A stretch of DNA of 64,000 nucleotides from a virus. The stretch's first letter is position 1, and every line of letters starts with the position of its first letter. The notes under the pieces were generated by a model. It was not told the DNA's origin. It saw only the letters and a program-made list of their open reading frames with translations, and ran no database searches. The translations under genes were made by a program, and so were the position numbers. This document shows positions 13,055 through 64,000 of this stretch, piece after piece. Location: the IMG/VR virus record IMGVR_UViG_3300045988_105383; one strand, 5' to 3'.

Positions 13055-13068
13055 CTTGCACCCTCCAA

Positions 13069-40911: not shown

Positions 40912-41106
40912 ATGGCAAAATTGAAATCTAATAGTGAACGCGACAAACTCGTGCTGGACGCACTCAACGAAAACATCAAGAAGGCCCCATCGCTCGGCAT
41001 TTGCGCTGAGACCTTCTATGCTCTCAAGCAAGAATTCCTTCGTATTATGCAGGAGCGTGACGACGCTCTAAAACAGCTTCAGGATCAGGAAGACCATGAA
41101 ATGTAA
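40912..41106 (+). CDS. Hypothetical protein upstream of integrase
   Basis: 64-aa helical ORF overlapping int start by 11 nt. Confidence 0.45.
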   Translation: MAKLKSNSERDKLVLDALNENIKKAPSLGICAETFYALKQEFLRIMQERDDALKQLQDQEDHEM

Positions 41107-51826: not shown

Positions 51827-52537
51827 TTATGCAATGGCCTTGCGGTAGCGCTCGCGGATTGCTTCGATGCGTCTTTGTACGCTGCTCTTGCTCATGGCGA
51901 GCACGGCGGCGATGTCTCGGACGGTGTAACCGGCTGCGAGCTGCTGCACGATGATCTTGTCCGTGTCCGTGGCGATGGCCTCGCGGATGATCTCGGCGGT
52001 GATGGCTGCGGCCTCGGGGCCCTGCGTGATCGGCTCGGCGGTGACGCTGGCGGAAAGATCGATCACGGTCTGAGTCTGGTCCTCGTCGGTGACGATCTGG
52101 CGGCATGCGTTGGCGTGGCGGCGCTCGGCGCGGCTGATGCTGTGCGCTGCCTGGGCGCACGCGGAAAACATGATATAGGCGAGCGGGCGCGGCTCCTCTC
52201 GCTGCTCGTTGCGGTCGAGGGCGGCGAAGATGCGGCAATAAGCATCCGCTGCGACGGTCTGCGCGTCGTCCGGGGTGACGATCCAATCGGTGTCCATGTC
52301 CCGGCCTTGGGCCTCGGCGCGGTGCTTCATGGTCCACGTCATGCGGATCAGGGCGGAATATTTCTCCTCACCGGTCATGGCGTCCCACTCGCAGCGGGCT
52401 GTCTGGGCCGCTCTGGCGGCGCGGTGCGCCTCTTTCAGGCAGATGGCAAACTGGGCGCGGCTGCGGGTCTCGGGGTACTCGGTGACGGTCTGGCGGTACA
52501 GGCTCCACGCCTGAGACATGATGGCGGTTTTCTTCAT
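51827..52537 (-). CDS. ECF-like sigma factor candidate with N-terminal extension
   Basis: Region-2-like DDAQTVAADAYCRIFAALD...PLAYIMFSACAQAAHSISRAERR; region-4 HTH IIVQQLAAGYTVRDIAAVLAMSKSSVQRRIEAIRERY; ATG behind AAGGAG. Confidence 0.55.
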   Translation of the reverse strand: MKKTAIMSQAWSLYRQTVTEYPETRSRAQFAICLKEAHRAARAAQTARCEWDAMTGEEKYSALIRMTWTMKHRAEAQGRDMDTDWIVTPDDAQTVAADAYCRIFAALDRNEQREEPRPLAYIMFSACAQAAHSISRAERRHANACRQIVTDEDQTQTVIDLSASVTAEPITQGPEAAAITAEIIREAIATDTDKIIVQQLAAGYTVRDIAAVLAMSKSSVQRRIEAIRERYRKAIA

Positions 52538-52622
52538 GGTATTGATCTCCTTTACATCGTCAAAATTTTGATGGGATCGGGTCGCTTTACGGTGCGGCCC
52601 GTCAAGGTGTCCGGCTGCTGGA

Positions 52623-53381
52623 TCAGACAAGATACAGAATTCCATCAAGCTCGATGCTTACCGCCTCCTGCTTCATCTCCTCCTTGATCCGCTGGGCAAT
52701 GCGGATGATTTCCGGAACCTGCTCGTGATACTGGCGTTCGGTACAGCTGGCGTAAACGATGGTAACGGCCTCGGCAACCAGTCCGGCGGAGTCGCTTACC
52801 CAAAAGCCGCGGGCGGTGGTGGCGGTCGCGCCGCCGAACATTTCGGCAAGCTCGCGGGCGACGCGCTGGACCTGCTCGGAGTTGTCGGTGTTCTCTGCCG
52901 GGCCCTGCGTGCTGGGGACGTACACCGCGACGCGGTGTGGCAGCTGTACGCCGCCGAATTGCTCGACGGTCAGGCGGACCGGTGCCGCCGGGGCGCTGGG
53001 CTTGGCCGTCTCCTGCGGCGCGGGCGGCGCGTACTTGCTCATCGCCTGCGCAAGCTGGTTGATGTGCGCGGGGTGGATTTCGGCGGGCTGGTAGATGCTC
53101 TTTGCTTCCAGCTCGTCACGGGTCGCGGCGGTCTCGATGGTGGCGGCCCACTCGCGGGAGCTGGGCCAGATTCTGCCGTCCCACTCGCCCACGGTGTTGA
53201 TGATCTCGGCGATTGCCTCGCGGGCGGTATCGTATCCGAGGCGTTCCACGATAGCGGCGACGGTCTCGGCGGGGGTCCGGTCGCTGGTTTCGCGGTAGAT
53301 GTTTACCACGGTTTTGATGTTCGCGCGGGTGGTCTTGATCTGCTCGCGGCGGGCGGTGATCTCGGTTGCATTCATTTTCAT
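52623..53381 (-). CDS. Hypothetical two-domain protein, first gene of leftward operon
   Basis: 252 aa, RBS AAAGGAG; N-terminal helical domain, Pro/Ala linker, C-terminal alpha/beta-like domain; family not recognised with confidence. Confidence 0.5.
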   Translation of the reverse strand: MKMNATEITARREQIKTTRANIKTVVNIYRETSDRTPAETVAAIVERLGYDTAREAIAEIINTVGEWDGRIWPSSREWAATIETAATRDELEAKSIYQPAEIHPAHINQLAQAMSKYAPPAPQETAKPSAPAAPVRLTVEQFGGVQLPHRVAVYVPSTQGPAENTDNSEQVQRVARELAEMFGGATATTARGFWVSDSAGLVAEAVTIVYASCTERQYHEQVPEIIRIAQRIKEEMKQEAVSIELDGILYLV

Positions 53382-53433
53382 ATTGGTTTCTCCTTTCCCT
53401 TGCGGGGCGTTCGTTGTTTCATTTGATGGCTTT

Positions 53434-53587
53434 ATTTTAGCACTTATTATGTGCCGCGTCTATTGACGTTTTCAACAATTATTAAGTGCCGTTTTCGTGT
53501 ATTTTAGCACTTATTACGTGCCGCGCTTGGTACTGTGCAGCCGCCACTTATTAAAAAATAAATTGGCACTTGCTACGTGCCGCCGCG
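53434..53587. promoter_or_regulatory. Operator array: three 15-bp palindromes plus two half-sites
   Basis: GCACTTATTATGTGC (53440-53454), GCACTTATTACGTGC (53507-53521), GCACTTGCTACGTGC (53566-53580); half-sites 53484-53490 (reverse) and 53544-53553; first two embedded in a 25-nt direct repeat ATTTTAGCACTTATTAYGTGCCGCG. Confidence 0.7.
53446..53475 (-). promoter_or_regulatory. Candidate leftward sigma-A-type promoter overlapping operator 1
   Basis: Minus strand TTGAAA-18 nt-CATAAT. Confidence 0.4.
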
Positions 53588-53598
53588 CGTGGTATAAT
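53570..53598 (+). promoter_or_regulatory. Rightward sigma-A-type promoter overlapping operator 3
   Basis: TTGCTA-17 nt-TATAAT with TGg extended -10. Confidence 0.55.
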
Positions 53599-53613
53599 TT
53601 TTACATCGGCGGC

Positions 53614-53638
53614 GGGACAAATGCCGCCGATCCGGTAG
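53614..53638 (+). promoter_or_regulatory. GGGACAA-N-GGTAG motif copy 1
   Basis: GGGACAAATGCCGCCGATCCGGTAG; 33 nt before ATG 53671; GGGACAAAT is the loop of a 9-bp hairpin (53605-53631). Confidence 0.6.
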
Positions 53639-53670
53639 ATTAAAAAGCAAAAGGCACGGGAGGGCATCAC

Positions 53671-54285
53671 ATGGCAGTAAGTGAGCGCAAAAAGGCATCG
53701 AACAAAAAGTGGGATGTTGCAAATATTGAGCGGCTATCTATTGCAGTCCCCAAGGGCGAGCGCGACGAGATTAGAGCATCGGCAGCGGCGGCGGGTGAGA
53801 GCATCAACAAATACATCATCGCGGCCATTCGGGCGCGGATGGGCGACGCGGACGGCGGCGCGTCTCCTGCGGCTGAGATCGTCCAGGCGGCGCAGCCGGT
53901 AGCAGAGGCGCAGCCGGGGCAGGTGCTCAACGGGGCCGCGCTGGAGTCGGCCAAGGTGGCAGCGGCGGCGGCCGGTGAGACTTTGCCCGCATTTGTGGCG
54001 CGGGCCGTCCAGCAGGCGGCGGACGCGGACGCGCGGGAGCGCCTGCTTGCGGTAGCGTGTAAAAATGCAAGTTTGCCGTCGTCAGCAGATGCAAGCGCGG
54101 CGGCTGAATCTTGCGCGACTTCCGCGTGTGATGTCGTGGACTGGGCCGCACGCACGGACCACCTGCGCGCGCTGCGAGAATCCGCCCGCGCGTCCGCTGG
54201 AATTCCAAGCCCTGAACAGACGGCTCCCGGAAATTCTGGGGACTTACCGCCTGAACAGGCAGGGTCGAAAACTCCGGGAGACTGA
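53671..54285 (+). CDS. Ribbon-helix-helix protein with internal RHH-like duplication and Ala-rich tail
   Basis: RLSIAVPKGERDEIRASAAAAGESINKYIIAAIRARM and a second LESAKVAAAAAGETLPAFVARAVQQA segment. Confidence 0.55.
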   Translation: MAVSERKKASNKKWDVANIERLSIAVPKGERDEIRASAAAAGESINKYIIAAIRARMGDADGGASPAAEIVQAAQPVAEAQPGQVLNGAALESAKVAAAAAGETLPAFVARAVQQAADADARERLLAVACKNASLPSSADASAAAESCATSACDVVDWAARTDHLRALRESARASAGIPSPEQTAPGNSGDLPPEQAGSKTPGD

Positions 54286-54304
54286 CGGCCATCTTTTGAA
54301 ATTG

Positions 54305-54411
54305 CTGAACAGCGCCCCTTCCAATTTCCGGGGAAAAACCTGAACAGCAGCGCTCCGCAGCTCCTGAACAGCACCAACTTGAATATTCTGAACAGCAGCG
54401 CCCGATCACTC
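54305..54411 (+). repeat. CTGAACAGC repeat array (24-nt period)
   Basis: CTGAACAG at 54212, 54251 (inside the CDS), 54305, 54340, 54364, 54388; the last three are spaced 24 nt; CTGAACAGCAGCGC identical at 54340 and 54388. Confidence 0.75.
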
Positions 54412-54426
54412 GGGCGCTATTTTTTT
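54397..54426 (+). terminator. Rho-independent terminator
   Basis: AGCGCCCGA-tcac-TCGGGCGCT followed by ATTTTTTT. Confidence 0.75.
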
Positions 54427-54436
54427 ACGTTTTTGC

Positions 54437-54460
54437 GGGACAAACGCAGAAATCGTGTAG
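54437..54460 (+). promoter_or_regulatory. GGGACAA-N-GGTAG motif copy 2
   Basis: GGGACAAACGCAGAAATCGTGTAG; 33 nt before ATG 54493. Confidence 0.6.
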
Positions 54461-54492
54461 CTATAAAGAAAAAGCAAAAAGGAGCACGTAAC

Positions 54493-54834
54493 ATGATTAT
54501 TGACCTCATTCTCGACCGCAAGGACGGCATTTTCTACAATCCATTCGATTTTTACATTGGCGTGGCAAGCTACGCCGAAACGGCCTCGGACATCGCCCAG
54601 AGAATCGCCGAAGCAATGGACGGCGGCGAGGAAGCGGACGTCCAGCGCGAACTCTGCGCATACATCGCGGCCAACAACTACGATCCGGAAATCTGCGAGT
54701 ATATCAAGTCGGTCAAATGGCTGGAAAAGGACGCTGAACAGCTGAATCCGATCTGCGTAGACTGCAAGCGGCGCGGAAGCACGTGCAGCGGCACGACCTG
54801 TCAGGCGTGGACCGGCTGCGTCTATCGAAAATAG
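54493..54834 (+). CDS. Hypothetical protein with C-terminal Cys cluster
   Basis: 113 aa from MIIDLILD behind AAAGGAG; CVDCKRRGSTCSGTTCQAWTGC. Confidence 0.55.
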   Translation: MIIDLILDRKDGIFYNPFDFYIGVASYAETASDIAQRIAEAMDGGEEADVQRELCAYIAANNYDPEICEYIKSVKWLEKDAEQLNPICVDCKRRGSTCSGTTCQAWTGCVYRK

Positions 54835-54857
54835 GTCAAAAAAATCCCGCCTTCGGC

Positions 54858-54881
54858 GGGACAAATCGGAAAATACGGTAG
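54858..54881 (+). promoter_or_regulatory. GGGACAA-N-GGTAG motif copy 3
   Basis: GGGACAAATCGGAAAATACGGTAG; 36 nt before ATG 54917; GCGGG is the 3' arm of hairpin CCCGCC-ttc-GGCGGG. Confidence 0.6.
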
Positions 54882-54916
54882 CTTCAAAGTCAAAGAACAG
54901 AAACGAGGTACACACC

Positions 54917-55135
54917 ATGAAACATGTCACAACAGTCAAGGCGCAGCTCGTCAAAACGTCCATCGGCTACGGCGTTGCCTATACGTGGCCGTCTGCAATT
55001 ACCGGCTCGATTATGGCGCATCAGGAGCGGTTCCAAACATTCCAGCAAGCGGAGAAATTCATCGACCGCCTGAAATGGGAGGCGGTGTTCTGGAATTTCC
55101 GCTTCCTGATCCGCGGAGCAAAAACGCCAGTCTGA
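54917..55135 (+). CDS. Hypothetical small protein
   Basis: 72-aa ORF with RBS GAGGT. Confidence 0.5.
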   Translation: MKHVTTVKAQLVKTSIGYGVAYTWPSAITGSIMAHQERFQTFQQAEKFIDRLKWEAVFWNFRFLIRGAKTPV

Positions 55136-55212
55136 ATGTCGCCGAAAAACCGCAAAGAATCCGAACCAACCAGCAGCGCCCAAAAACGTGAAAAAACCAA
55201 GCGACAGAAAAA

Positions 55213-55240
55213 CCGGGAGAAATCCCGGCTTTCTTTTTTT
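55213..55240 (+). terminator. Rho-independent terminator
   Basis: CCGGGA-gaaa-TCCCGG followed by CTTTCTTTTTTT. Confidence 0.7.
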
Positions 55241-55270
55241 CCCAAAAACGAGAAAATTTCCGAACCAAGC

Positions 55271-55294
55271 GGGACAAATCCAATTTTGAGGTAG
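55271..55294 (+). promoter_or_regulatory. GGGACAA-N-GGTAG motif copy 4
   Basis: GGGACAAATCCAATTTTGAGGTAG; 34 nt before ATG 55328. Confidence 0.6.
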
Positions 55295-55327
55295 CTATAA
55301 AGAAAAAACATAAAGGAGTCCTCCAAG

Positions 55328-55705
55328 ATGAAAAAAGCAGCAAGCCGCACGATCCCCTATCGGGTCTACAAAAAGATGTTTTCGGACTGCAAAGCCTACG
55401 ACTACAAAAGCGGAAAAATCACGGTTGACTTCCCTGTCGACTATCTGGAATCGAAGATGTACATACCGGACGGCTGGTACTCTGGTGCAAATTATGTTTC
55501 TAAACGGATTGGGCGCACAACCGCAGGCCGTGAGGTTCGGGCAGAGATCGCGGAGCATTCGGACGGCGGCTGCAAGTATTACGACGCCGTTGTGACGGTC
55601 GGGAACACGTTCTACGGCGGTTCTATGCGGACGCGGGACTTTATACGTTCGTTCGACGCCGCCATCGCGTGGGCAGTTGAAACCGCCGAAAGTTTTTTGA
55701 AATAA
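55328..55705 (+). CDS. Hypothetical protein
   Basis: 125-aa ORF behind AAAGGAG. Confidence 0.55.
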   Translation: MKKAASRTIPYRVYKKMFSDCKAYDYKSGKITVDFPVDYLESKMYIPDGWYSGANYVSKRIGRTTAGREVRAEIAEHSDGGCKYYDAVVTVGNTFYGGSMRTRDFIRSFDAAIAWAVETAESFLK

Positions 55706-55720
55706 GCGCACACAATTACA

Positions 55721-55747
55721 GCGCCGGATGAAATTCCGGCGTTTTTC
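55721..55747 (+). terminator. Rho-independent terminator
   Basis: GCGCCGGA-tgaaat-TCCGGCG followed by TTTTT. Confidence 0.7.
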
Positions 55748-55760
55748 CTTTATCCAGTGC

Positions 55761-55784
55761 GGGACAAACGCCGATTTCCGGTAG
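55761..55784 (+). promoter_or_regulatory. GGGACAA-N-GGTAG motif copy 5
   Basis: GGGACAAACGCCGATTTCCGGTAG; 43 nt before ATG 55827. Confidence 0.6.
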
Positions 55785-55826
55785 AGGTAAAGGTAGAACA
55801 TCAAAACTAATTTTGGAGGTATGAAT

Positions 55827-56153
55827 ATGAATAAACTGTATTTTGTGGAAACGAACGGCGGCTTCATGACAGTCGCAACAAGCGACGACGGACGCGCCTG
55901 CTACATGTGGCAGGACGGACGGGAGCAGAATTACCCGACGCAAAATCCCGCGTGGAACGAATCCGTCAGAACCGAGCGGGAGCAGATCGCGCTTGCGTGG
56001 CTTCGTAGCATTGCGGATGTGAACACGTTTGACGGTCTTTACGCCAACTCCGACGTGATAGAAAGCGGATACGTCGGAGTTTATACCGTGCAGGAGTTCC
56101 GGGAGGATCTCAAAAAAACCGGGGACAGAATCATTGCAAGCATCGAATTTTAA
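55827..56153 (+). CDS. Hypothetical protein
   Basis: 108 aa from MNKLYFVE; GGAGG 7 nt upstream. Confidence 0.55.
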   Translation: MNKLYFVETNGGFMTVATSDDGRACYMWQDGREQNYPTQNPAWNESVRTEREQIALAWLRSIADVNTFDGLYANSDVIESGYVGVYTVQEFREDLKKTGDRIIASIEF

Positions 56154-56157
56154 GAAA

Positions 56158-56197
56158 ATATCCGGGGGACGTGAAAAATCCCCCGGATATTTTTTTG
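56158..56197 (+). terminator. Rho-independent terminator
   Basis: ATATCCGGGGGA-9 nt-TCCCCCGGATAT followed by TTTTTTT. Confidence 0.8.
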
Positions 56198-56206
56198 CCC
56201 GTCAGC

Positions 56207-56230
56207 GGGACAACCGCAAAAAACCGGTAG
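56207..56230 (+). promoter_or_regulatory. GGGACAA-N-GGTAG motif copy 6
   Basis: GGGACAACCGCAAAAAACCGGTAG; 38 nt before ATG 56268. Confidence 0.6.
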
Positions 56231-56267
56231 AACCGAAGATAGAAAGAAAAAACGGAGGTACTTACTC

Positions 56268-56612
56268 ATGACTAACGCAGCAATCATTCTTGACGAATCT
56301 ATCCGCCTTATGCAGTCCGGCATCCTGTCCGGCACGGGCCATTTCATCGACATCGTAGACGAGAACGGCCAGACCGAGCAGCTGGAGCTCCCCGAGGAGA
56401 TTCACACCTTCAACGCCTGGAAGCAGCGCGGCTATATCGTCCGCAAGGGCGAGCACTCCATTGCGTCCTTCCCGATCTGGAAGTACATCGGCGGCAAGCG
56501 CAAAGAATCCGACGAGCCGCAGGAGGGCGACGAGGCCGAATCGAGCGGCTACTGCCGCATGAAACTTTCCCACTTCTTCACCGCCGCGCAGGTCCAGCCG
56601 CTGACGGTCTGA
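56268..56612 (+). CDS. ArdC-N-like (DUF1738-like) ssDNA-binding domain protein
   Basis: EEIHTFNAWKQRGYIVRKGEHSIASFPIWKY matches the TF-Q-W-G-VRKGEK core of ArdC N-terminal domains; acidic C-terminal part. Confidence 0.45.
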   Translation: MTNAAIILDESIRLMQSGILSGTGHFIDIVDENGQTEQLELPEEIHTFNAWKQRGYIVRKGEHSIASFPIWKYIGGKRKESDEPQEGDEAESSGYCRMKLSHFFTAAQVQPLTV

Positions 56613-56632
56613 GTCTGAGGAACTCACAAAAA

Positions 56633-56662
56633 ACGCACGGAAACAATCCGTGCGTTTTTTTT
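56633..56662 (+). terminator. Rho-independent terminator
   Basis: ACGCACGGA-aacaa-TCCGTGCGT followed by TTTTTTT. Confidence 0.8.
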
Positions 56663-56746
56663 CGTGCGTTCTTTGTGCGTTCGACTGTATCAAAATTCAC
56701 TTTTCCCGCATGTCATACTGAAATCAGAGAAAAATTTCAAATCCAC

Positions 56747-56770
56747 GGGACAAATTCAAATCTCCGGTAG
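56747..56770 (+). promoter_or_regulatory. GGGACAA-N-GGTAG motif copy 7
   Basis: GGGACAAATTCAAATCTCCGGTAG; 40 nt before ATG 56810. Confidence 0.6.
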
Positions 56771-56809
56771 CAATAACAGCGAAAAGAAACCGACCACGGA
56801 GGAACGGCT

Positions 56810-56908
56810 ATGAAAATCAAACTTCAAAAAATCCTGACGGCCATCGCCGTCATCGCCCTGTTCTATCTCATGCTCGGGGCGGATACCCTGATCGAATACA
56901 TTCTATAA
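56810..56908 (+). CDS. 32-aa single-TM peptide
   Basis: Own translation MKIKLQKILTAIAVIALFYLMLGADTLIEYIL; RBS GGAGGAA; has its own motif copy. Confidence 0.4.
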   Translation: MKIKLQKILTAIAVIALFYLMLGADTLIEYIL

Positions 56909-56921
56909 AGGGGCAGCAACC

Positions 56922-57293
56922 ATGAAAAACACGAAATTTCTTCGTAAAATGTGCGGCTTTTCCGCGCGGCACGGCCTCGATATGGAGCCCGAGAAAATCA
57001 GCGTCGCCATCCGCTGCCGGACCTACGAGCAGTACCGGGCGGCGCTCGCCGCGGCCTATCGCCTGAGAAACGTGAAGATCGAGAATCTGTACCATAGTCT
57101 GTTCATCCGCATCTACGATGCCGCCGACTGGCAGGCGTGGAAAGAAAGCGAGCAGCGCCGGCAGCAGATCGTCTATCGCTTCTGGGAGGCCATGCGCGAA
57201 AACGGCAGAGATCAAAAAGCCTCTCAGGCCGCAGCACACGACCTTGCCGTCCAGATCGGCGCTCTGAAGGAATACGAAGCCATCTACGCCTGA
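56922..57293 (+). CDS. Hypothetical protein
   Basis: 123-aa ORF. Confidence 0.5.
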   Translation: MKNTKFLRKMCGFSARHGLDMEPEKISVAIRCRTYEQYRAALAAAYRLRNVKIENLYHSLFIRIYDAADWQAWKESEQRRQQIVYRFWEAMRENGRDQKASQAAAHDLAVQIGALKEYEAIYA

Positions 57294-57309
57294 ACAGGAG
57301 GCCACGATC

Positions 57310-57462
57310 ATGAAATATAGCGAGATCATCCGAAGCATCGACGATATTTTCGACTACTTCAAATTTCACAACAAAAACATGACGAAAGCGCAGGAAGAAA
57401 AACTGTATGAGCTGCAAGACTTGATCCACGAACTTCGCATCACGCAGGAGAGAAATAAATGA
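57310..57462 (+). CDS. Hypothetical 50-aa protein
   Basis: Own translation MKYSEIIRSIDDIFDYFKFHNKNMTKAQEEKLYELQDLIHELRITQERNK behind GGAGG. Confidence 0.4.
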   Translation: MKYSEIIRSIDDIFDYFKFHNKNMTKAQEEKLYELQDLIHELRITQERNK

Positions 57463-57623
57463 AACGAAATCAGCACCGCCGAACCTTTGAATTTTTCAGC
57501 ACAGAACAGCAAGCCGCCGCATTTGTGGCGGCTCGCAAAAAGCAGCGCCGCAAGGCGTACCTGACCCCGTGGACATCAGCAGACGGAACAGAACACAAGT
57601 TTATCGTCTGGTATTACATCTGA
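57459..57623 (+). CDS. Hypothetical 54-aa protein
   Basis: Own translation MKRNQHRRTFEFFSTEQQAAAFVAARKKQRRKAYLTPWTSADGTEHKFIVWYYI; ATGA overlap with upstream stop. Confidence 0.4.
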   Translation: MKRNQHRRTFEFFSTEQQAAAFVAARKKQRRKAYLTPWTSADGTEHKFIVWYYI

Positions 57624-57639
57624 ACAGGAGGAACAGAAA

Positions 57640-57906
57640 ATGACCGTATATATTGCGCTTCACACTTGGGATACCCCGGATAACGAGGGCAGCGAAATTC
57701 TTGGCGTTTACTCAAACTTTGAGAAAGCCCGTGAACAGATCGAGGCCGGAGCCGCCGCCATCCGCGAAGAGTACGACGATGACCTGTGGGAGGATGACAT
57801 GACATGGGACGAACCCACAGAAATCCACCTCGGAAGAACCACGGATTTCATGGGAGACTATGCCACGATCTACAGCTGGGAGATCATCCCGCGCGAAATC
57901 GAATAA
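57640..57906 (+). CDS. Hypothetical acidic protein
   Basis: 88-aa ORF rich in D/E (EEYDDDLWEDDMTWDEPTE). Confidence 0.5.
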   Translation: MTVYIALHTWDTPDNEGSEILGVYSNFEKAREQIEAGAAAIREEYDDDLWEDDMTWDEPTEIHLGRTTDFMGDYATIYSWEIIPREIE

Positions 57907-57921
57907 AAAGCACCGGGAAAC

Positions 57922-57945
57922 GGGACAAATCCCGTTTCCCGGTAG
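57922..57945 (+). promoter_or_regulatory. GGGACAA-N-GGTAG motif copy 8
   Basis: GGGACAAATCCCGTTTCCCGGTAG; 43 nt before ATG 57988; inside a perfect 13-bp hairpin 57913-57942. Confidence 0.6.
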
Positions 57946-57987
57946 ATACATGGGTGCAATAAAGCCATCAGGCAGGAGGTATTTAAA

Positions 57988-58650
57988 ATGACGCAGCTCG
58001 AAATCTACCAGAAAATCGCCGATGCCGTGAACGCAGCAGCCGGTTCCAAGAATCCAAAAATGACCATCGTAACCGAAAGTGAGTTCGGCGGTGTGTACTT
58101 TTTGCACATCAATGCACATTCCGCAGATATCAAGCCTTATGCGCAGTACAAAGACGCGCTGACGATCTACTTCAAAAAGCGCGGTGGCCGCTCAGTCTAT
58201 GGAATGCGCTTCTATGGTACAAAGCCCGTGGCAATCTTCTCCGGGTGGCAAGAGACAACATGGGCGCAGCCCAGAAGCTTCCTTTGCTTTGACAAGAATA
58301 TGTTCTACGGTCTGGTTGATAGCTTCCCGAAGGAACAGAAGATTTCCGAAGAATCCGAGCGCGTTCACCTGTCCGAGATTCAGCAGAAGGGTAAGGTCTA
58401 CAAGGTTGTCAGCATGAACACGGACGACCCGCGGCCGCGCATGATCGTCGAAACATTTGAAACCGTCGAGCATCTGAAAAAAGCATTCGAGACCACCGGA
58501 GAATTCCACAGCGTATCCTGCCGGGCCGAGCTGCAAGGCGCGCCGAAGATTAAAAACTTCTGCGGGCCGATGTACGACGGCGAGGACAGCCAGGGGCGCG
58601 CGGTCATCCGCTACGAAACGCAGGAGGTCTACGACATTCTCAGCGCCTGA
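57988..58650 (+). CDS. Hypothetical protein
   Basis: 220-aa ORF behind AGGAGG. Confidence 0.55.
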   Translation: MTQLEIYQKIADAVNAAAGSKNPKMTIVTESEFGGVYFLHINAHSADIKPYAQYKDALTIYFKKRGGRSVYGMRFYGTKPVAIFSGWQETTWAQPRSFLCFDKNMFYGLVDSFPKEQKISEESERVHLSEIQQKGKVYKVVSMNTDDPRPRMIVETFETVEHLKKAFETTGEFHSVSCRAELQGAPKIKNFCGPMYDGEDSQGRAVIRYETQEVYDILSA

Positions 58651-58660
58651 TTTTAAAAAT

Positions 58661-58681
58661 GGCGGGACAATCCCGCCTTTT
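58661..58681 (+). terminator. Rho-independent terminator overlapping motif copy 9
   Basis: GGCGGGA-caa-TCCCGCC followed by TTTT. Confidence 0.6.
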
Positions 58682-58688
58682 CCCGTAG
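58664..58688 (+). promoter_or_regulatory. GGGACAA-N-GGTAG motif copy 9
   Basis: GGGACAATCCCGCCTTTTCCCGTAG; 35 nt before ATG 58723. Confidence 0.55.
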
Positions 58689-58722
58689 ATATAAAACCAG
58701 AACAGAAACCGGAGGTGCAACC

Positions 58723-58929
58723 ATGAAATACAGCAAAAAAACGGAACGTAAGCTTCTGGAAATTGCCATGCAGCATATGCCGCCCGTTGCAGATCGTGGA
58801 GACTTGAAAACGCGCAACTCAGACAGCGAGGACTTTCTCAATGTTGCTGTTTGGGGACTTCGGGACGCCCTGATGGAAGCATACGAACTCGGCAAGGATG
58901 AGAAGGGAGAAAACCGCCATGAAAGATGA
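58723..58929 (+). CDS. Hypothetical small protein
   Basis: 68-aa ORF behind GGAGGT. Confidence 0.5.
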   Translation: MKYSKKTERKLLEIAMQHMPPVADRGDLKTRNSDSEDFLNVAVWGLRDALMEAYELGKDEKGENRHER

Positions 58930-59128
58930 CTACAGACTCGGCTTTGGGTATCTCGGAAATGGGCTGACGGTATGGAACAGGGCGAAAGAGGTAAATCACG
59001 ACTATCAGACGGTCGCCCACATATCCTCTAGCGGAGAAATCACCTACTACAAACAGGATCTTCCGCAGTGTGTCCGGGCGCACATAGAACAAGTTGCACA
59101 AGAAGAACGTGACCATAGAAGACTTTGA
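58919..59128 (+). CDS. Hypothetical small protein
   Basis: 69 aa from MKDDYRLG behind GGGAGAA; overlaps upstream stop. Confidence 0.45.
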   Translation: MKDDYRLGFGYLGNGLTVWNRAKEVNHDYQTVAHISSSGEITYYKQDLPQCVRAHIEQVAQEERDHRRL

Positions 59129-59162
59129 ATCGCACGATTTTAGATAAGAAGGGAGAAAAACC

Positions 59163-60386
59163 ATGTATTACATCATCAACCGAGAAACCGAGAAGCTGGA
59201 GCTTCATTTTGATAAATCCGAATACCAGGCGCTTTCTGACGATCAACAATCCACCATCAAAAGCAACTTCCTCTTTTCAAGATACGGCGGCTGTTGGGTC
59301 AGCCGCGCAAAAATCCCGAACCTCTGGCGCGCAGAACAGGTTGCAAAGAGCCTTGGCGCGGAGAATCAGGGAAAGACGGGTGAGCTTCTTTCCTTCGAGG
59401 AAAAAATGGAGCGCAAAGCAGCCCGCGCGGAAGAACGAGCCGAGCGCATGGACGCGCGCGCCGATGCAGCAGAGCAGCGCGGCGAACAGCTGCAAAAGCC
59501 CATCAACGCCAGGCGCGGCGATATTGCGTTCTTCACCCAGCCGAACATCAACACATCCTCCGGGCGCGCCTTCACGCGCCAGCGCGAAAAAATGTTCGCC
59601 GCCTTTGAGCGCGGCATGGACGAGTTCAAAAAATCGGAATACTACGCCGAACGTGCCGAAGCCGCACGCAGAACAGCAAATCTGGAAAATTCCAAGGATA
59701 AGGCATTCTGCGACCGCCGCGTGAAGGATGCCGAGAAAAACATCCGGGCTATCCAAAAGAACCTCGAAGGCTACCGCGCGCGGCTCGAACGCATCCGGAA
59801 CGGCGAACAGCAGACCAGATTCAACGGAACAGTCATTGAACAGTCCGAAATCGAGCGCTGGATCGAGGACGCAGAAGAACGCCTGGAATCCGAAATCTCC
59901 CGCCTGTGCTATTATCAGTCCTGCATCGACGAGCTGGGCGGCGTACAGTACAGCCGTGAGAACATCAAGCCCGGCTACAAGGTAAAACTCAAGCGCTATG
60001 GCGTTTGCGAAGTTCTCAGCACCGGGCCGAAGAACATCGTATACGAGATTCTTTCCGGCGGAGCGGAGGGATTTACCGGACGCGCAGCCTATGCCGAAAT
60101 TCTGGAAGTGACCAGCTCCGAGGAAAAAGCGAAACCAACTCACCCCTTCAAAGTCGGCGATACCATCGTCGTAGAAGCAATTCGAGATAACGGATTTGTG
60201 CGGGAGACCCTTGAAGTTATTAAAACGACCAAATTAACCGTATCCATGAAGAATCGGGCAACCGGGGCGATCATCTGCAAAACGCCGAAAATCCGCTGGA
60301 CCAGAGACGGAAACAAATGGGTGCTGTTCTTCACGAATACCGATGGCCTGCTCACCCAGTATATCTATCGCAACCCGGAAGCGTAA
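59163..60386 (+). CDS. DUF3560-domain protein with C-terminal extension
   Basis: ERKAARAEERAERMDARADAAEQRGEQLQKPI...FTRQREKMFAAFERGMDEFKKSEYYAERAEAARRTA matches the DUF3560 pattern. Confidence 0.6.
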   Translation: MYYIINRETEKLELHFDKSEYQALSDDQQSTIKSNFLFSRYGGCWVSRAKIPNLWRAEQVAKSLGAENQGKTGELLSFEEKMERKAARAEERAERMDARADAAEQRGEQLQKPINARRGDIAFFTQPNINTSSGRAFTRQREKMFAAFERGMDEFKKSEYYAERAEAARRTANLENSKDKAFCDRRVKDAEKNIRAIQKNLEGYRARLERIRNGEQQTRFNGTVIEQSEIERWIEDAEERLESEISRLCYYQSCIDELGGVQYSRENIKPGYKVKLKRYGVCEVLSTGPKNIVYEILSGGAEGFTGRAAYAEILEVTSSEEKAKPTHPFKVGDTIVVEAIRDNGFVRETLEVIKTTKLTVSMKNRATGAIICKTPKIRWTRDGNKWVLFFTNTDGLLTQYIYRNPEA

Positions 60387-60403
60387 AAAAACTTACCGGC
60401 AGT

Positions 60404-60428
60404 GGGACAAACCGTCTCCTGCCGGTAG
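60404..60428 (+). promoter_or_regulatory. GGGACAA-N-GGTAG motif copy 10
   Basis: GGGACAAACCGTCTCCTGCCGGTAG; 35 nt before ATG 60463; enclosed by stem CCGGCAG/CTGCCGG (60396-60425). Confidence 0.6.
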
Positions 60429-60462
60429 CATTATATGTGAAATCAAAAAGGAGGCCGAAACA

Positions 60463-60777
60463 ATGACCAGAATCTACGAAGAAACCAGATACGACAAAGA
60501 AGCCGACGCGCTCGTCCACGTCGCCAACTGGAGTTTTACAGTCTATCCCGGCAGCAGTGAACAGTTCACCGTCTGCAAAAACGGCGTGGCAAAAACCGTC
60601 CGCGTCGAAGACTGCGGCAGCGAGTTCGTCTACAAGCTGCTGAAAACCAAGGTCAAGGCCGCTGGCGGCGCGCACGGGCTCTTTGAATGGCTCGACATGT
60701 GCCTTTCCGAAAAATTTGAAGAGTGCCACGCCTGGAAGGTCCTGCGCTGGTGCTTCGACACCTGCCGCCCGCTCTGA
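60463..60777 (+). CDS. Hypothetical protein
   Basis: 104 aa from MTRIYEE behind AAAGGAGG. Confidence 0.5.
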   Translation: MTRIYEETRYDKEADALVHVANWSFTVYPGSSEQFTVCKNGVAKTVRVEDCGSEFVYKLLKTKVKAAGGAHGLFEWLDMCLSEKFEECHAWKVLRWCFDTCRPL

Positions 60778-60793
60778 GAAAGGAGAACACAAC

Positions 60794-60985
60794 GTGAAGA
60801 TTCGGGCAAACATCAACGGTAAAGTCTTTCAGCGAACCGTCCATAAAACGACTGTTGAATTTTCCGACGGAAGCCGCGAACGCTTCAACTGCGTATCGAT
60901 CTCCGGCAGGGAATACGTCGTTCAGACCTGCAACGGAATCCCGGTCAGCGTCTATCCGCTGATTTCTTATCTTCTCATCCCGTAA
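60794..60985 (+). CDS. Hypothetical small protein (GTG start)
   Basis: 63 aa VKIRANINGK... behind AAAGGAG. Confidence 0.4.
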   Translation: MKIRANINGKVFQRTVHKTTVEFSDGSRERFNCVSISGREYVVQTCNGIPVSVYPLISYLLIP

Positions 60986-61068
60986 AATTTCCGGAAACCG
61001 CTGGAAAATCCGGAAGAGCCGTGATAAACTATGGATACCAGCATAAAGTAAAAAAGGAGAACAGAATC

Positions 61069-61296
61069 ATGTTTTACGATCATAACGAATATACCATCAT
61101 CGGCGGCCAGTTCATCGTGAACAAAACCAACAAACCCATGGAGCCCGGCGACATGGCTGCCATCCATGTCTACTCCGCCCCGGATGATATCTCTGGCGTT
61201 GAAACCTACGGCAAGGAGCTCGTCGCCCAGAACAGAGAGATCGTCGAAAAAGACGGCAAAAAGCAGCTCTGCAAAGTCGCCATCGTCCGTATCTAA
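61069..61296 (+). CDS. Hypothetical small protein
   Basis: 75 aa from MFYDHNEY behind AAAGGAG. Confidence 0.5.
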   Translation: MFYDHNEYTIIGGQFIVNKTNKPMEPGDMAAIHVYSAPDDISGVETYGKELVAQNREIVEKDGKKQLCKVAIVRI

Positions 61297-61300
61297 ACCA

Positions 61301-61335
61301 GAAACAGCCGCCCGATTGGGCGGCTGTTTCTTTTC
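61301..61335. terminator. Strong hairpin between convergent genes
   Basis: GAAACAGCCGCCC-gatt-GGGCGGCTGTTTC followed by TTTTC. Confidence 0.75.
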
Positions 61336-61519
61336 AAAAAACTACAATCAGAATTCCTGCGAAAGCCACAGCTATTCCAATACATAGAATTACCGATGTC
61401 AGGCATCCGTTCGGCTCCCCCTTCGGGTGTGACTGCCGCCAATAGGAATTGAACGCCTGCCGCGCCCTGTTCCTGCAATACCTTCCTCCAAATCCTCCCC
61501 AAGTTCCTCTCCGTCCCAT
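61334..61519 (-). CDS. Small protein with basic N-terminus and C-terminal TM helix
   Basis: 61 aa MGRRGTWGGFGGRYCRNRARQ...LTSVILCIGIAVAFAGILIVVF behind GGAGGT; only minus-strand gene in the array. Confidence 0.4.
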   Translation of the reverse strand: MGRRGTWGGFGGRYCRNRARQAFNSYWRQSHPKGEPNGCLTSVILCIGIAVAFAGILIVVF

Positions 61520-61554
61520 AATTTTACCTCCTATAATTTCTCCATAAAACAATA

Positions 61555-61583
61555 TTGACTTTTTGATAATCATAATATATAAT
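61555..61583 (+). promoter_or_regulatory. Sigma-A-type promoter
   Basis: TTGACT-17 nt-TATAAT. Confidence 0.6.
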
Positions 61584-61602
61584 GGTAATCAGAAAGTGAG
61601 GT

Positions 61603-61788
61603 GTGAACGTGACAAAACCGATGGGCCGTCCCAAAATTGAGAACCCGAAAGAAACGCAGCTTGGCGTTAGACTGAATACGGACGAATTACGAAAACTGGA
61701 CGAAAACGCCCAGCATTATAATGAAACCAGAACGCAGTCACTCCGACGTGGTATCGAAGTTTTGAACCAGGCCATAAAGTCAGAATAA
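61603..61788 (+). CDS. Ribbon-helix-helix (CopG/MobC-like) protein, start uncertain
   Basis: GRPKIENPKETQLGVRLNTDELRKLDENAQHYNETRTQSLRRGIEVL. Confidence 0.55.
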   Translation: MNVTKPMGRPKIENPKETQLGVRLNTDELRKLDENAQHYNETRTQSLRRGIEVLNQAIKSE

Positions 61789-62025
61789 TATAAAACGCCC
61801 CCTCTTTGCGGTTAGTTTGGCGACCGAGCGCAAAGAAGGAGCCTCCCTTGAGGGAATACCTCGCGGTAAATTTATTATACCGTGCAGTATACCCTCTGTC
61901 AAATGCAAATTTGAACGGAGGGGATTTTTATACCCATTTTCAGGTGTAACAAAAAACATTTTGGTTGCGTGCTACGCTTGAAATGAAGGGGCATCCCCCA
62001 TCAACTGATTTACGAGGAGAATTTT

Positions 62026-62823
62026 ATGGATTTACAAATGTTCAATAATCCGAGATTTGGTGAAGTTCGCACAATCGAAGAAGGCGGAAAGGTTTTGTTC
62101 TGTGGTAACGATATTGCAAAGGCACTCGGATATAAAAGCCCAAAGGATGCGATTGCCGCACATTGCAAGGGGGCGGTAAAACGCCGCCTAGGGGTGCAGA
62201 CTGGTACAAAAGCAGATGGAACTCCTGCTATGCAGGAAGTAGAAATGACTTTCATTCCAGAGGGTGACATTTACCGCCTTGCCGCTCGCTCCAAGCTACC
62301 GGGTGCAGACGAGTTCGAGAGATGGATTTTCGATGAAGTACTTCCCAGCATCCGGCGTAACGGCGCGTACATGACACCAGAAGTCATCGAGCGTACTCTG
62401 ACAGACCCGGATTACATCATCCAGCTTGCAACTACGCTCAAAATGGAGCAGCAAAAGCGCAGAGCGCTGGAAGAAAAGGTCAAGGCCGACGCGCCTGCGG
62501 TATTCTTCGCCGAAGCCGTCACCGGTGCGGACACAAACATCCTCATTCGGGACATGGCGAAGCTGCTTGCGCAAAACGGCACAGACATCGGCGGAAATCG
62601 ACTCTATGAAGTTTTGCGTCGGGACGGATATCTCATCAAATCGGGCAGCGATTACAACATGCCGACGCAGAAATCCATGGAACTTGGCTTGTTTTTCGTG
62701 CGTGAAACGCCGCGCATTTCAAAAGATGGTGCTGTGATTGACCGCACCACAAAGGTTACGCTAAAAGGGCAGAAATATTTCATCAACAAGTATGCGACCC
62801 AAAAAGCGCTCGCCAAAATGTAA
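62026..62823 (+). CDS. Bro-N plus KilAC-type antirepressor
   Basis: N-terminal FGEVRTIEEGGKVLFCGNDIAKALGY; C-terminal ILIRDMAKLLAQNGTDIGGNRLYEVLRRDGYLIK...PTQKSMELGLF. Confidence 0.8.
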   Translation: MDLQMFNNPRFGEVRTIEEGGKVLFCGNDIAKALGYKSPKDAIAAHCKGAVKRRLGVQTGTKADGTPAMQEVEMTFIPEGDIYRLAARSKLPGADEFERWIFDEVLPSIRRNGAYMTPEVIERTLTDPDYIIQLATTLKMEQQKRRALEEKVKADAPAVFFAEAVTGADTNILIRDMAKLLAQNGTDIGGNRLYEVLRRDGYLIKSGSDYNMPTQKSMELGLFFVRETPRISKDGAVIDRTTKVTLKGQKYFINKYATQKALAKM

Positions 62824-62838
62824 CAGGAGGATTTTGAT

Positions 62839-63042
62839 ATGACCATTCAGGAACTTGTGAACGTTATGGAAAAGCATGTCAAAAGATTCTCCGTCTTCTA
62901 CGACGAGGACGCGCTTGAGCTTGACACCTCCAATCCTATTGTGATGGCCGGTATCGGGCGGCTGACGGTCGATTCGGTCGACCCCATCCCCGTAGACGAT
63001 GGCGTGACCGTCTATATCCATCCTGCCGTCAAAATTCTGTGA
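62839..63042 (+). CDS. Hypothetical small protein (paralogue of next gene)
   Basis: MTIQELVNVMEKH...NPIVMAGIGRL. Confidence 0.45.
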   Translation: MTIQELVNVMEKHVKRFSVFYDEDALELDTSNPIVMAGIGRLTVDSVDPIPVDDGVTVYIHPAVKIL

Positions 63043-63075
63043 CCAGAAACCAAAATCCAAAGGAGAGTTCTCATA

Positions 63076-63282
63076 ATGACCATTAAAGAAGTTTATGACC
63101 ACATGGAGAATGTCGATGACTGGTGCGTCAGCGTTGACGGCGTTTCATCCCCAATCGTGTTAGAGAATCCGGCGATCATGTCCGGAGTTGCGAAGTTTCA
63201 TGTCCAGAAAGTCTATCTGCTTGCCGAGGCAGATAAAATTACTGCCGAACTGGCTCTCGCTACGACAATCGAATCCGATTAA
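63076..63282 (+). CDS. Hypothetical small protein (paralogue of previous gene)
   Basis: MTIKEVYDHMENV...NPAIMSGVAKF. Confidence 0.45.
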   Translation: MTIKEVYDHMENVDDWCVSVDGVSSPIVLENPAIMSGVAKFHVQKVYLLAEADKITAELALATTIESD

Positions 63283-63302
63283 AAGAATTTTTGAAAACTG
63301 GC

Positions 63303-63327
63303 GGGACAAATTCAGTCCTGCCAGTAT
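63303..63327 (+). promoter_or_regulatory. GGGACAA-N-GGTAG motif copy 11 (degenerate downstream half)
   Basis: GGGACAAATTCAGTCCTGCCAGTAT; 87 nt before ATG 63414; stem GGCGGGAC/GTCCTGCC 63300-63322. Confidence 0.45.
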
Positions 63328-63413
63328 CTATAAGGATGTAACATAATTCATTTTTTCGCCGTGATACGATAAAATCAGAGGCCACAAAACGTCAAAAAGA
63401 AAGGAAAAGAACC

Positions 63414-63767
63414 ATGGACGAACTTGACCGCAAAATCTACACACTCCTCAAGCGCATCGGCGTTCCTGCCGACATCGACGGATACGACTATATTTTCCAC
63501 GCCATCCGTCTTCTTGTCGACAACGGATACCGGAGCATTCCTATCACGAAACCCGGCGGGCTTTACGACCAGATCGCAGCACGCTACAAGACCATGCCGC
63601 TGCGCGTCGAACGCAGCATCCGCCATGCGGTAGAGCTGACATTCGACCGCATCCCGTACACCGTCAGCGAGCAGGTCTTCGGCGCAACGATCGACCCGAT
63701 GAAGGGGAAACTCACCAACAGCGATTTCATCCGGCAGCTCGCACTGGAGATTCGCTACAGCAACTAG
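63414..63767 (+). CDS. Stand-alone Spo0A C-terminal (DNA-binding) domain protein
   Basis: IGVPADIDGYDYIFHAI, LYDQIAARYKTMPLRVERSIRHAVE, KLTNSDFIRQLALEIR align with B. subtilis Spo0A IGVPAHIKGYLYLREAI / ASRVERAIRHAIE / KPTNSEFIAMVADKLR; no receiver domain. Confidence 0.85.
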   Translation: MDELDRKIYTLLKRIGVPADIDGYDYIFHAIRLLVDNGYRSIPITKPGGLYDQIAARYKTMPLRVERSIRHAVELTFDRIPYTVSEQVFGATIDPMKGKLTNSDFIRQLALEIRYSN

Positions 63768-63785
63768 AAAAAAATCTCAAAGGCC

Positions 63786-63809
63786 GGGACAAATTCAGAT
63801 TTCCGGTAG
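63786..63809 (+). promoter_or_regulatory. GGGACAA-N-GGTAG motif copy 12
   Basis: GGGACAAATTCAGATTTCCGGTAG; 36 nt before ATG 63845. Confidence 0.6.
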
Positions 63810-63844
63810 CATTCAAAACACACAACATTTTAGGAGGTAGCACC

Positions 63845-64000
63845 ATGCGTCATTCCCGCACAAATCTCACCCTTCTCCCGGCCTGTCTGCCGGAGAACGT
63901 CTTCGAGCCCATCGTTGACCGCCATCACGCAGAAGTCCGTCTCCGTTCCGCCCAGCGGGCGGAGGCGGAGCGGATTCACCGTCTTCGCTGCCGTGTCCGC
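63845..64000 (+). CDS. Hypothetical protein, 3' end outside window
   Basis: ATG behind AGGAGGT; open to the window edge (MRHSRTNLTLLPACLPENVF...). Confidence 0.45.
   Translation, partial: MRHSRTNLTLLPACLPENVFEPIVDRHHAEVRLRSAQRAEAERIHRLRCRVR

Follow-up and report, generated by a model that had tools for sequence, protein, structure and literature searches.

The question raised by this locus is how an array of small viral genes is transcribed. The locus lies in a 64,000-nucleotide (nt) stretch of viral DNA, IMG/VR record IMGVR_UViG_3300045988_105383, which is referred to in its full length as the window. Between positions 53614 and 63809 the window carries 12 plus-strand copies of a two-part motif, GGGACAA-N12/13-GGTAG. 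A sequence-only reading of this DNA had proposed that the motif is a promoter recognized by a specificity factor that the element itself encodes. Comparative evidence from protein fold, synteny, and covariation supports that proposal, and we consider it quite likely that the motif represents a promoter class of a phage family, read by a phage-encoded sigma factor resembling the extracytoplasmic function (ECF) group and driving an array of accessory-gene cassettes.

The repeated motif

GGGACAA is found 12 times on the plus strand of the window, every time between 53614 and 63786, and once on the minus strand, at 21580. The strict form GGGACAA-N12/13-GGTAG has nine matches, against an expectation of 0.00 from 100 dinucleotide-preserving shuffles; in three of the 12 copies the 3′ half departs from GGTAG, being TGTAG at 54437, CGTAG at 58664, and AGTAT at 63303. 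Eight copies are 24 nt long (N12 spacer) and four are 25 nt long (N13). All 12 are intergenic and lie on the coding strand of the small-gene array (Table 1). In 11 of them the motif ends 32–42 nt before a start codon that is preceded by a Shine-Dalgarno sequence; for the copy at 63303, upstream of the gene at 63414, the distance is 86 nt. A scan of both strands of the window allowing one mismatch per half gave no further credible copy. Our recount therefore agreed with the sequence-only reading on the 12 coordinates and their strand, on the two motif lengths, on the near-constant distance to the start codon, and on the absence of complete copies elsewhere.

Other statements about the motif had to be modified. 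Its two conserved ends stood, but its limits did not, because the conserved element is wider: a run of at least 5 A/T bases lies approximately 10–21 nt upstream of each of the 12 copies, the base 5′ of GGGACAA is C in every copy, and the base 3′ of it is usually A. The consensus from 130 distinct family copies was aaattttt-N8-gCGGGACAAAt..-cc.GTAGAa.TAAAgatAgAA, and it reduces the invariant core within the 3′ half from GGTAG to G-[T/C]-A-G. It had also been claimed that neither half matches TTGACA/TATAAT; the −35 half, however, has GACA in common with TTGACA.

A pair of boxes that precede genes on the same strand and are kept apart by a spacer free in sequence but almost constant in length is the arrangement of a bipartite promoter. 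In five units of the array a canonical hairpin-plus-T-run terminator is located directly upstream of the motif, so that transcription must begin anew there. No copy precedes a replication or structural gene in the window. Canonical ECF promoters have AAC in the −35 element, CGT in the −10 element, and a spacer of 16–17 nt; the corresponding boxes of the motif are GGGAC and (c)GTAGA. Whether the spacer is shorter than that of ECF promoters, as had been suggested, depends on the alignment of the boxes. From the AC of GGGAC to the GT of GTAGA the gap is 15–16 nt in the window lineage; the GGTTTCC lineages described below have an N16 spacer, and σW-type promoters have a gap of about 17.

A sigma-like protein encoded opposite the array

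The proposed specificity factor is the product of the open reading frame (ORF) at 51827–52537. Its sequence can be divided into an extra N-terminal region of about 85 amino acids (aa), a σ2-like domain (86–146), an acidic disordered linker, and a σ4 helix-turn-helix (HTH) domain (174–236). An AlphaFold2 model built on 22 homologues, with a predicted local distance difference test (pLDDT) score of 82, has helical domains at about 56–146 and 174–235 and a disordered acidic linker at 155–173. When the model was compared with the PDB using Foldseek, almost all of the top 35 matches were sigma factors, mostly of the ECF type (σH, σE, σL, AlgU, CnrH, and SigW), and the best 16 matches had probabilities of 0.94–1.0. 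The C-terminal domain superposed on region 4 of σE, SigC, and SigD with root-mean-square deviations of 2.2–2.6 Å.

Homologues of this protein formed 146 clusters at E < 1e-10 among 1.8 billion representative proteins. A profile made from 56 diverse homologues aligned positions 95–238 with residues 45–186 of Escherichia coli σE (E = 3.9e-5), and CnrH and AlgU matched as well. Within these 56 family members Pfam detected Sigma70_ECF in 30 and Sigma70_r4_2 in 21. For the window protein itself Pfam gave only sub-threshold σ4/HTH matches and none to Sigma70_r2, and NCBIfam gave weak, nearly full-length alignments to TIGR02937 and SigX that were far under the cut-off. The combination of σ2 and a σ4 HTH joined by a flexible linker, with neither σ3 nor σ1.1, is the ECF architecture, to which the N-terminal region is added. 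Because the predicted fold and the remote homology agree, we judge the protein to be a remote ECF-type sigma factor.

Motif and sigma gene in related viruses

A scan of IMG/VR with CGGGACAA-N11/12-CGGTAG identified many gut viral contigs of 40–120 kb, with three to six same-strand motif copies per fetched stretch. A separate set consisted of 36 viral loci encoding a homologue of the sigma-like protein (54–97% identical). Wherever a locus extended for 6 kb or more on the divergent side, several motif copies were present on the strand opposite the sigma gene, mostly 5–11 strict copies per locus; in loci L145, L148, and L153 the number reaches 5–7 only if GCAG 3′ halves are counted. Across all 36 loci a single copy was present on the sigma gene's own strand, and the loci that had no copies were those truncated beside the sigma gene. 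G[T/C]AG followed GGGACAA at the fixed distance in 130 of 139 distinct array-strand sites. The sublineage formed by L145, L148, and L153 has mostly GCAGA in place of the GTAGA of the window. No relatives of the sigma gene were found in genome contigs.

Covariation of motif halves with protein domains

Eight distant homologues, for which the two measured identities to the window protein were 29–34%, also face a divergent small-gene array, and some genes in those arrays are homologous to the RHH, ArdC-N, and DUF3560 genes of the window. Each array has its own motif. GGTTTCC-N16-GATTGGTAT is present opposite P0271 (locus L155, 4 copies), P0209 (L246, 11 copies), P0303 (L247, 5 copies), and P0308 (L254, 9 copies). 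Opposite P0316 (L250, 7 copies) the motif is GGTTTCC-N16-GCGTGGTAT, and opposite P0321 (L249, 11 copies) it is GGTTTCC-N16-GACATTCC. The two remaining proteins, P0310 (L248, 7 copies) and P0306 (L252, 3 copies), face GGTTAAT-N15-GTTTGGTAT and GGTWGTCA-N15-GTTTGGTAT, respectively. When the motifs were searched in a cross-matrix of 12 tabulated loci, each was confined to its own lineage and to the array strand; a thirteenth locus, L254, fits the same pattern.

The two halves of the motif vary separately. All six GGTTTCC proteins have in common the recognition helix SHTA[I/V]NKR, although the central domains of the five that were compared are down to 35% identical. P0321 has kept the GGTTTCC helix and has a divergent σ2 and another −10 box, GACATTCC. 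Conversely, P0310 and P0306 are 89% identical in σ2 and both have GTTTGGTAT, whereas their σ4 domains are 44% identical and their 5′ boxes are GGTTAAT and GGTWGTCA. For P0303 and P0308 the 5′ box was forecast from the helix before the DNA was inspected, and both forecasts were right. In these alignments, then, the upstream half of the motif follows the C-terminal recognition helix and the downstream half follows the central domain. In ECF sigma factors domain 4 reads the −35 element and domain 2 reads the −10 element, and domain-swap chimeras obey this rule (PMC3817407); by analogy, the pattern among the lineages is a natural counterpart of that experiment. The earlier choice of ORF 51827–52537 as the candidate factor is thus borne out by its ECF-like two-domain fold and profile, its constant position divergent to an array, and the covariation of its domains with the motif.

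Viral-contig searches with two further distant homologues, P0124 and P0128, gave no match. A scan of viral contigs for GGTTTCC-N16-GATTGGTA gave lone background matches only, this lineage being absent from IMG/VR; these matches served as a control, showing that chance matches do not cluster.

Several observations weigh against reading the motif as the promoter of this sigma-like protein. The protein missed every curated sigma threshold (20.2 bits versus a cut-off of 21.1 for Sigma70_ECF, and 18.7 versus 42.9 for TIGR02937), and as a result the named database copies are all labelled hypothetical; its N-terminal extension of about 85 aa is unexplained. The sigma gene has no copy of the motif upstream of it on the minus strand, so the autoregulation typical of ECF factors is absent. 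The boxes lack the canonical AAC and CGT, and the distance from the 5′ box to the conserved 3′ box is 2–3 nt shorter in the window lineage than in those with N16; the true −10 element of this lineage may extend into GAanTAAA. The covariation comprises about seven motif types, all among related phages, and common ancestry therefore contributes to it. Finally, GenBank phage MT835520.1, which encodes a 46% identical homologue, has no repeated bipartite motif within 12 kb, but the tight packing of its genes there makes this case uninformative.

Two side observations were made in the distant loci. In L246, L247, and L249, tRNA genes, Acb2/Tad1-like sponge genes, Lar, and DNA-methylase genes are located on the sigma side, downstream of the sigma gene. 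L250 encodes, at 12316–13326, a 336-aa protein with matches to HTH_3, Sigma70_r4, and RNA_pol_A_CTD, which from its domains may be a second transcription factor.

Alternative explanations of the motif

Among the alternatives, the one that survives best, though we regard it as unlikely, is that the motif is the site of some other phage DNA-binding protein acting with the host σA. It could be an activator box that replaces the −35 element and is bound by the Spo0A_C-like protein or the RHH protein g1, or it could be a "stoperator," a repressor site that silences the units in the lysogen. The consensus of the 0A box is TTTGTCRAA, and the reverse complement of the 5′ box, TTTGTCCC, has TTTGTC in common with it. 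However, the helix of the Spo0A_C-like protein, RVERSIRHAVE, is nearly identical to the RVERAIRHAIE of Spo0A and predicts TGTCGAA; the motif has no CGAA, this 0A-box core is absent from it (TTTGTCCC shares only TGTC), and the ten canonical TGTCGAA sites in the window are scattered. A Spo0A_C-like gene is recurrent in the family, but in the distant lineages the 10-kb arrays yielded no flagged gene of this kind. Copy 1 lies directly downstream of a σA −10 element, which is a typical operator position; operator-like repeats, however, are already present separately at 53440–53583, and the motif sites are limited to the array, unlike the L5 stoperators, which are spread over the genome. GGGACA matches TTGACA at four of six bases, but the T that σA needs as the last base of the −10 element is missing from the 3′ box, and a TATAAT-like hexamer occurs only at a spacing of 19–21 nt. 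Both halves of the motif, moreover, covary with the two domains of the sigma-like protein and not with another gene.

A reading of the motif itself as a σA promoter, GGGACA-N15/16-TAGAAn, was rejected because it lacks the final −10 T; using the TAAA block gives a 21-nt spacer. The ORF at 63414–63767 (plus strand), which had been named as a second candidate for the factor, fits that role poorly, since its product is a Spo0A C-terminal DNA-binding domain (Pfam E = 3.6e-25) whose recognition helix is close to that of Spo0A. The domain stands alone, without a receiver domain, and is present in at least nine related contigs. From its sequence, the protein may mimic or compete with the host Spo0A.

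It is very improbable that the element acts in RNA, whether as a processing site, an antiterminator loading site, or part of the terminators in one long transcript from 53570. Copy 1 does lie within a σA transcript in the window. Among relatives, however, the gap between the σA −10 element and the first copy is 15, 9, or 1 nt, and in L138 the σA start falls inside the box, so that the L138 σA transcript cannot hold the whole box; the varying gap argues that the motif acts at the DNA rather than the RNA level. Significant hairpins contain six or seven of the 12 copies (z-scores down to −6.2), and 38% of family copies are enclosed by a hairpin, versus 16% of shuffled controls. Yet significant structure is missing from five copies, pairing makes no difference to which bases are conserved, and the pairing register varies from copy to copy, for which reason a conserved RNA hairpin was dropped as the nature of the motif. 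No Rfam 15 covariance model matched a sequence overlapping any copy at E ≤ 1.

The hairpins can be explained by the spacing of the units. In six units the upstream stop codon is 13–23 nt away, and the 5′ box with its spacer either borders on a GC-rich hairpin or lies within one. The hairpins at 57912–57943, 60393–60428, 63297–63325, 58661–58677, and 54844–54862 are variable in sequence, and several have an upstream A-run, so that they read as terminators on the minus strand too. The same layout surrounds the GGTTTCC and GGTTAAT boxes of the distant lineages. Because the hairpin-embedded copies are exactly those that lack space for a separate terminator, we read the hairpins as the terminator or 3′ stabilizer of the upstream unit, folded into the next promoter. 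A role in RNA would also leave the covariation with a DNA-binding HTH unexplained.

It is hardly credible that the repeats have no regulatory role and are chiefly scars left by recombination, or the borders of cassettes, spread by cassette shuffling, even though 21 of 69 homology breakpoints between the window (53600–63900) and L119–L154 fall within −25 to +50 nt of a motif (8.9% expected; p = 3e-7) and gene order varies among relatives with junctions at motifs (in L121 the g3 and g4 homologues are reversed), since scars would hold neither a fixed distance to the start codon, nor bipartite conservation with a free spacer, nor a lineage-specific sequence matching the domains of a neighboring protein. 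Promoters present in many copies can be expected to recombine, and we attribute the breakpoint enrichment to this repetition; from these comparisons, the promoters seem to be the points at which recombination shuffles the cassettes.

The control region and the proposed pathway

The window is derived from a tailed phage, with a tape-measure protein gene at 7664–13129 (minus strand) and an integrase gene at 41096–42202 (plus strand). On the minus strand, the genes between 53381 and about 42900 include ORFs that, by eye from their translations, resemble SSB, DnaC, and clamp proteins. The region between these genes and the array, 53382–53670, looks like a switch: it contains two divergent σA-like promoters and three operator-like direct repeats (Table 1), which from their placement are probably the operators of a lysogeny repressor.

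Table 1. Positions of the motif copies and of the features of the control region in the window.
Feature	Position	Strand	Remarks
Proposed specificity factor, 236-aa remote ECF-like sigma	51827–52537	−	Divergent to motif array; supported by fold, profile matches, and sub-threshold family matches
RAGATH-5 RNA motif (Rfam RF02685)	52565–52614	−	Between the 252-aa ORF and the sigma gene; 57.9 bits, gathering score 50
252-aa ORF	52623–53381	−	Precedes the sigma gene within one leftward unit; 34 of 36 related loci have both genes
Operator-like direct repeats (three), GCACTT[AG][TC]TA[CT]GTGCCGC	53440–53457, 53507–53524, 53566–53583		Repeats 1 and 3 overlap the divergent σA-like promoters
σA-like leftward promoter, TTGAAA-N18-CATAAT	53446–53475	−	For the unit of the 252-aa ORF and sigma gene; overlaps repeat 1
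σA-like rightward promoter, TTGCTA-N17-TATAAT with upstream TG	53570–53598	+	Overlaps repeat 3
Motif copy 1, GGGACAA-N13-GGTAG	53614–53638	+	15 nt downstream of σA-like −10; 32 nt before g1 start (53671)
Motif copy 2, 3′ half TGTAG	54437–54460	+	32 nt before start 54493; separate terminator upstream (54397–54426)
Motif copy 3	54858–54881	+	35 nt before start 54917; hairpin 54844–54862 abuts box
Motif copy 4	55271–55294	+	33 nt before start 55328; terminator upstream (55213–55240)
Motif copy 5	55761–55784	+	36 nt before start 55821; terminator upstream (55720–55750)
Motif copy 6	56207–56230	+	37 nt before start 56268 (ArdC-N-like gene); terminator upstream (56160–56196)
Motif copy 7	56747–56770	+	39 nt before start 56810; heads five-gene unit 56810–57906; terminator upstream (56633–56663)
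Motif copy 8	57922–57945	+	42 nt before start 57988; inside 14-bp hairpin (57912–57943), ΔG −27 kcal/mol
Motif copy 9, 3′ half CGTAG	58664–58688	+	34 nt before start 58723; hairpin 58661–58677 plus TTTT overlaps box
Motif copy 10	60404–60428	+	34 nt before start 60463; inside hairpin (60393–60428), ΔG −24 kcal/mol
Motif copy 11, degenerate, 3′ half AGTAT	63303–63327	+	86 nt before Spo0A_C-like gene 63414; hairpin 63297–63325
Motif copy 12	63786–63809	+	35 nt before start 63845; gene extends past window edge

From the motif statistics and positions, the synteny, the sigma-like fold, and the domain-wise covariation, we infer the following sequence of polymerase binding and initiation. Upon infection or derepression, the two divergent σA-type promoters in the operator-bearing segment 53440–53600 would fire, the leftward one expressing the 252-aa ORF and the sigma gene and the rightward one expressing g1. 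Host core RNA polymerase together with the sigma product would then recognize the motif. The C-terminal HTH (σ4) would bind CGGGACAAA at about −35, and the central domain (σ2) would read the (c)GTAGA region at about −10; the A/T tract 10–20 nt further upstream is a possible UP element. The start site is estimated to be 7–12 nt downstream of GTAG, leaving a 5′ untranslated region of approximately 25–35 nt before the Shine-Dalgarno sequence. Each array gene or short operon would be a unit of its own, closed by a hairpin-plus-T-run terminator of its own or, if only 13–23 nt are available, by a hairpin built into the −35 element and spacer of the next promoter.

The sigma gene could be subject to a further control. 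The RAGATH-5 element ends 27 nt before its start codon, and the position is kept in L139 (9921–9976) and L145 (9922–9977); judged by this placement, the RNA could control sigma expression. The only GenBank phage match of positions 50000–64000 by megablast, 56 nt of Faecalibacterium phage FP_Toutatis, overlaps it. This match and an "Oscillospiraceae bacterium" label on a metagenome-assembled genome with the sigma homologue P0006 are the only hints to the host. No anti-sigma factor was recognized; the co-transcribed 252-aa ORF had no match in family-model searches.

Relation to known systems

Sigma factors encoded by phages and dedicated to private promoters include SPO1 gp28 and gp33/34 and T4 gp55. 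Further examples are gp36 of phiEco32 and the factor of phage 7-11 (PMC4331800). The proposed system is like these four in that a σ70-family phage protein redirects the host core polymerase to a repeated phage consensus, and in that host-type promoters provide the initial expression of the sigma gene. It differs in three respects. The promoters of phiEco32 and 7-11 have a single −10-like element (TAATGTATA), whereas the window motif is bipartite; the four systems serve middle and late essential genes, whereas the window regulon apparently contains only divergent small accessory genes; and a sequence relationship between their sigma factors and the window protein is undetectable.

Bacterial ECF (group 4) sigma factors such as σE and σW have the same σ2-linker-σ4 layout and bipartite promoters with a free spacer that tolerates ±1 nt, and their two boxes are read independently by two domains, of which P0310 and P0306 would be natural "chimeras" (PMC3817407). 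Unlike them, the window protein falls below the thresholds of the family models, has the N-terminal extra region, and has neither a self-promoter nor a recognizable anti-sigma; the boxes differ from AAC and CGT, and the system is virus-encoded and dedicated to viral genes.

Many short asymmetric intergenic motifs in one orientation ahead of phage genes are also a property of the stoperators of mycobacteriophage L5 and the start-associated sequences of Cluster K. Stoperators are single asymmetric 13-bp repressor sites spread over both arms of the genome, and the start-associated sequences abut the start codon. The window motif, in contrast, is bipartite, lies 32–42 nt upstream of the start codon and after terminators, is restricted to one array, and covaries with a sigma-like protein. 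It is not an L5-type single site of about 13 bp across early and late arms, its copies being confined to 53.6–63.8 kb. Another parallel in layout is the early region of Streptomyces phage phiC31, where each of many small transcription units has its own copy of an unusual promoter, conserved between the units and distinct from the main host type. We are not aware of any report of a dedicated sigma gene beside the phiC31 array, and the hosts and sequences of the two phages are unrelated.

On these comparisons the mechanism is most likely the classical one of a phage-encoded sigma factor with private promoters, in a family that has not been described; no description of the motif or of the protein family was found in the literature. 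What is new is the protein family with its promoter code, the apparent dedication of a sigma factor to accessory cassettes that are mostly single genes, and the natural modular swaps of specificity.

The accessory-gene array

Domains encoded in the array include RHH (g1), ArdC-N-like, DUF3560, Bro/KilAC (by eye), and the Spo0A C-terminal domain. A second repeat, CTGAACAG, occurs nine times, always on the plus strand: six copies are clustered at 54212–54395, within and after the 3′ end of g1, and single copies are at 54734, 57290, and 57620. Each of the last two supplies, with its TGA, the stop codon for an array gene. The related arrays of L246, L250, and L253 have the core CTGAACA 13–18 times on the array strand and 0 times on the other strand. 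From its position, CTGAACAG may be a conserved stop-codon or cassette-end context, or else a second regulatory site.

A broader reading, which as a whole we hold only tentatively and think doubtful, is that the sigma factor and promoter code form a plug-and-play cassette system for accessory, probably anti-defence, genes. Each gene would be an autonomous module consisting of A/T tract, promoter, ribosome-binding site, ORF, and terminator, the last frequently folded into the promoter that follows, and all modules would be served by one dedicated sigma factor that drives nothing else. The repeated promoters and the CTGAACAG stop context would supply homology for gain, loss, and reordering of genes between co-infecting phages; σ2 and σ4 modules would be swapped together with the matching promoter half, giving incompatible expression "dialects"; and the entire program may be gated by the RAGATH-5 RNA that precedes the sigma gene.

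Apart from this broader reading, the proposed promoter class would assign a function to a widespread unannotated family (at least 146 clusters at 50% identity, in human-gut phage contigs of 40–120 kb) and make the regulons of its sigma proteins readable directly from sequence. The motif flags gene starts in arrays rich in ArdC-N, DUF3560, Lar, Bro/KilAC, and Spo0A_C, and these arrays are a good hunting ground for new anti-defence and host-takeover genes. The lineages constitute a natural set of mutually exclusive sigma/promoter pairs with apparent domain swaps, which could serve as orthogonal expression parts in gut Firmicutes. For a phage, it would be unusual to divide labor in this way, with a sigma factor that seemingly serves accessory genes and not the essential middle or late ones.

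One segment of the array is of a different kind. The insert at 61334–62000 has a lower GC content, near-consensus σA promoters at 61555 (plus strand) and 61902 (minus strand), and a small RHH-like ORF at 61609–61788. Neither the insert nor the Bro/KilAC gene next to it (62026–62823) and two small genes have a copy of the motif; from its composition and promoters, the insert looks like a moron with independent expression.

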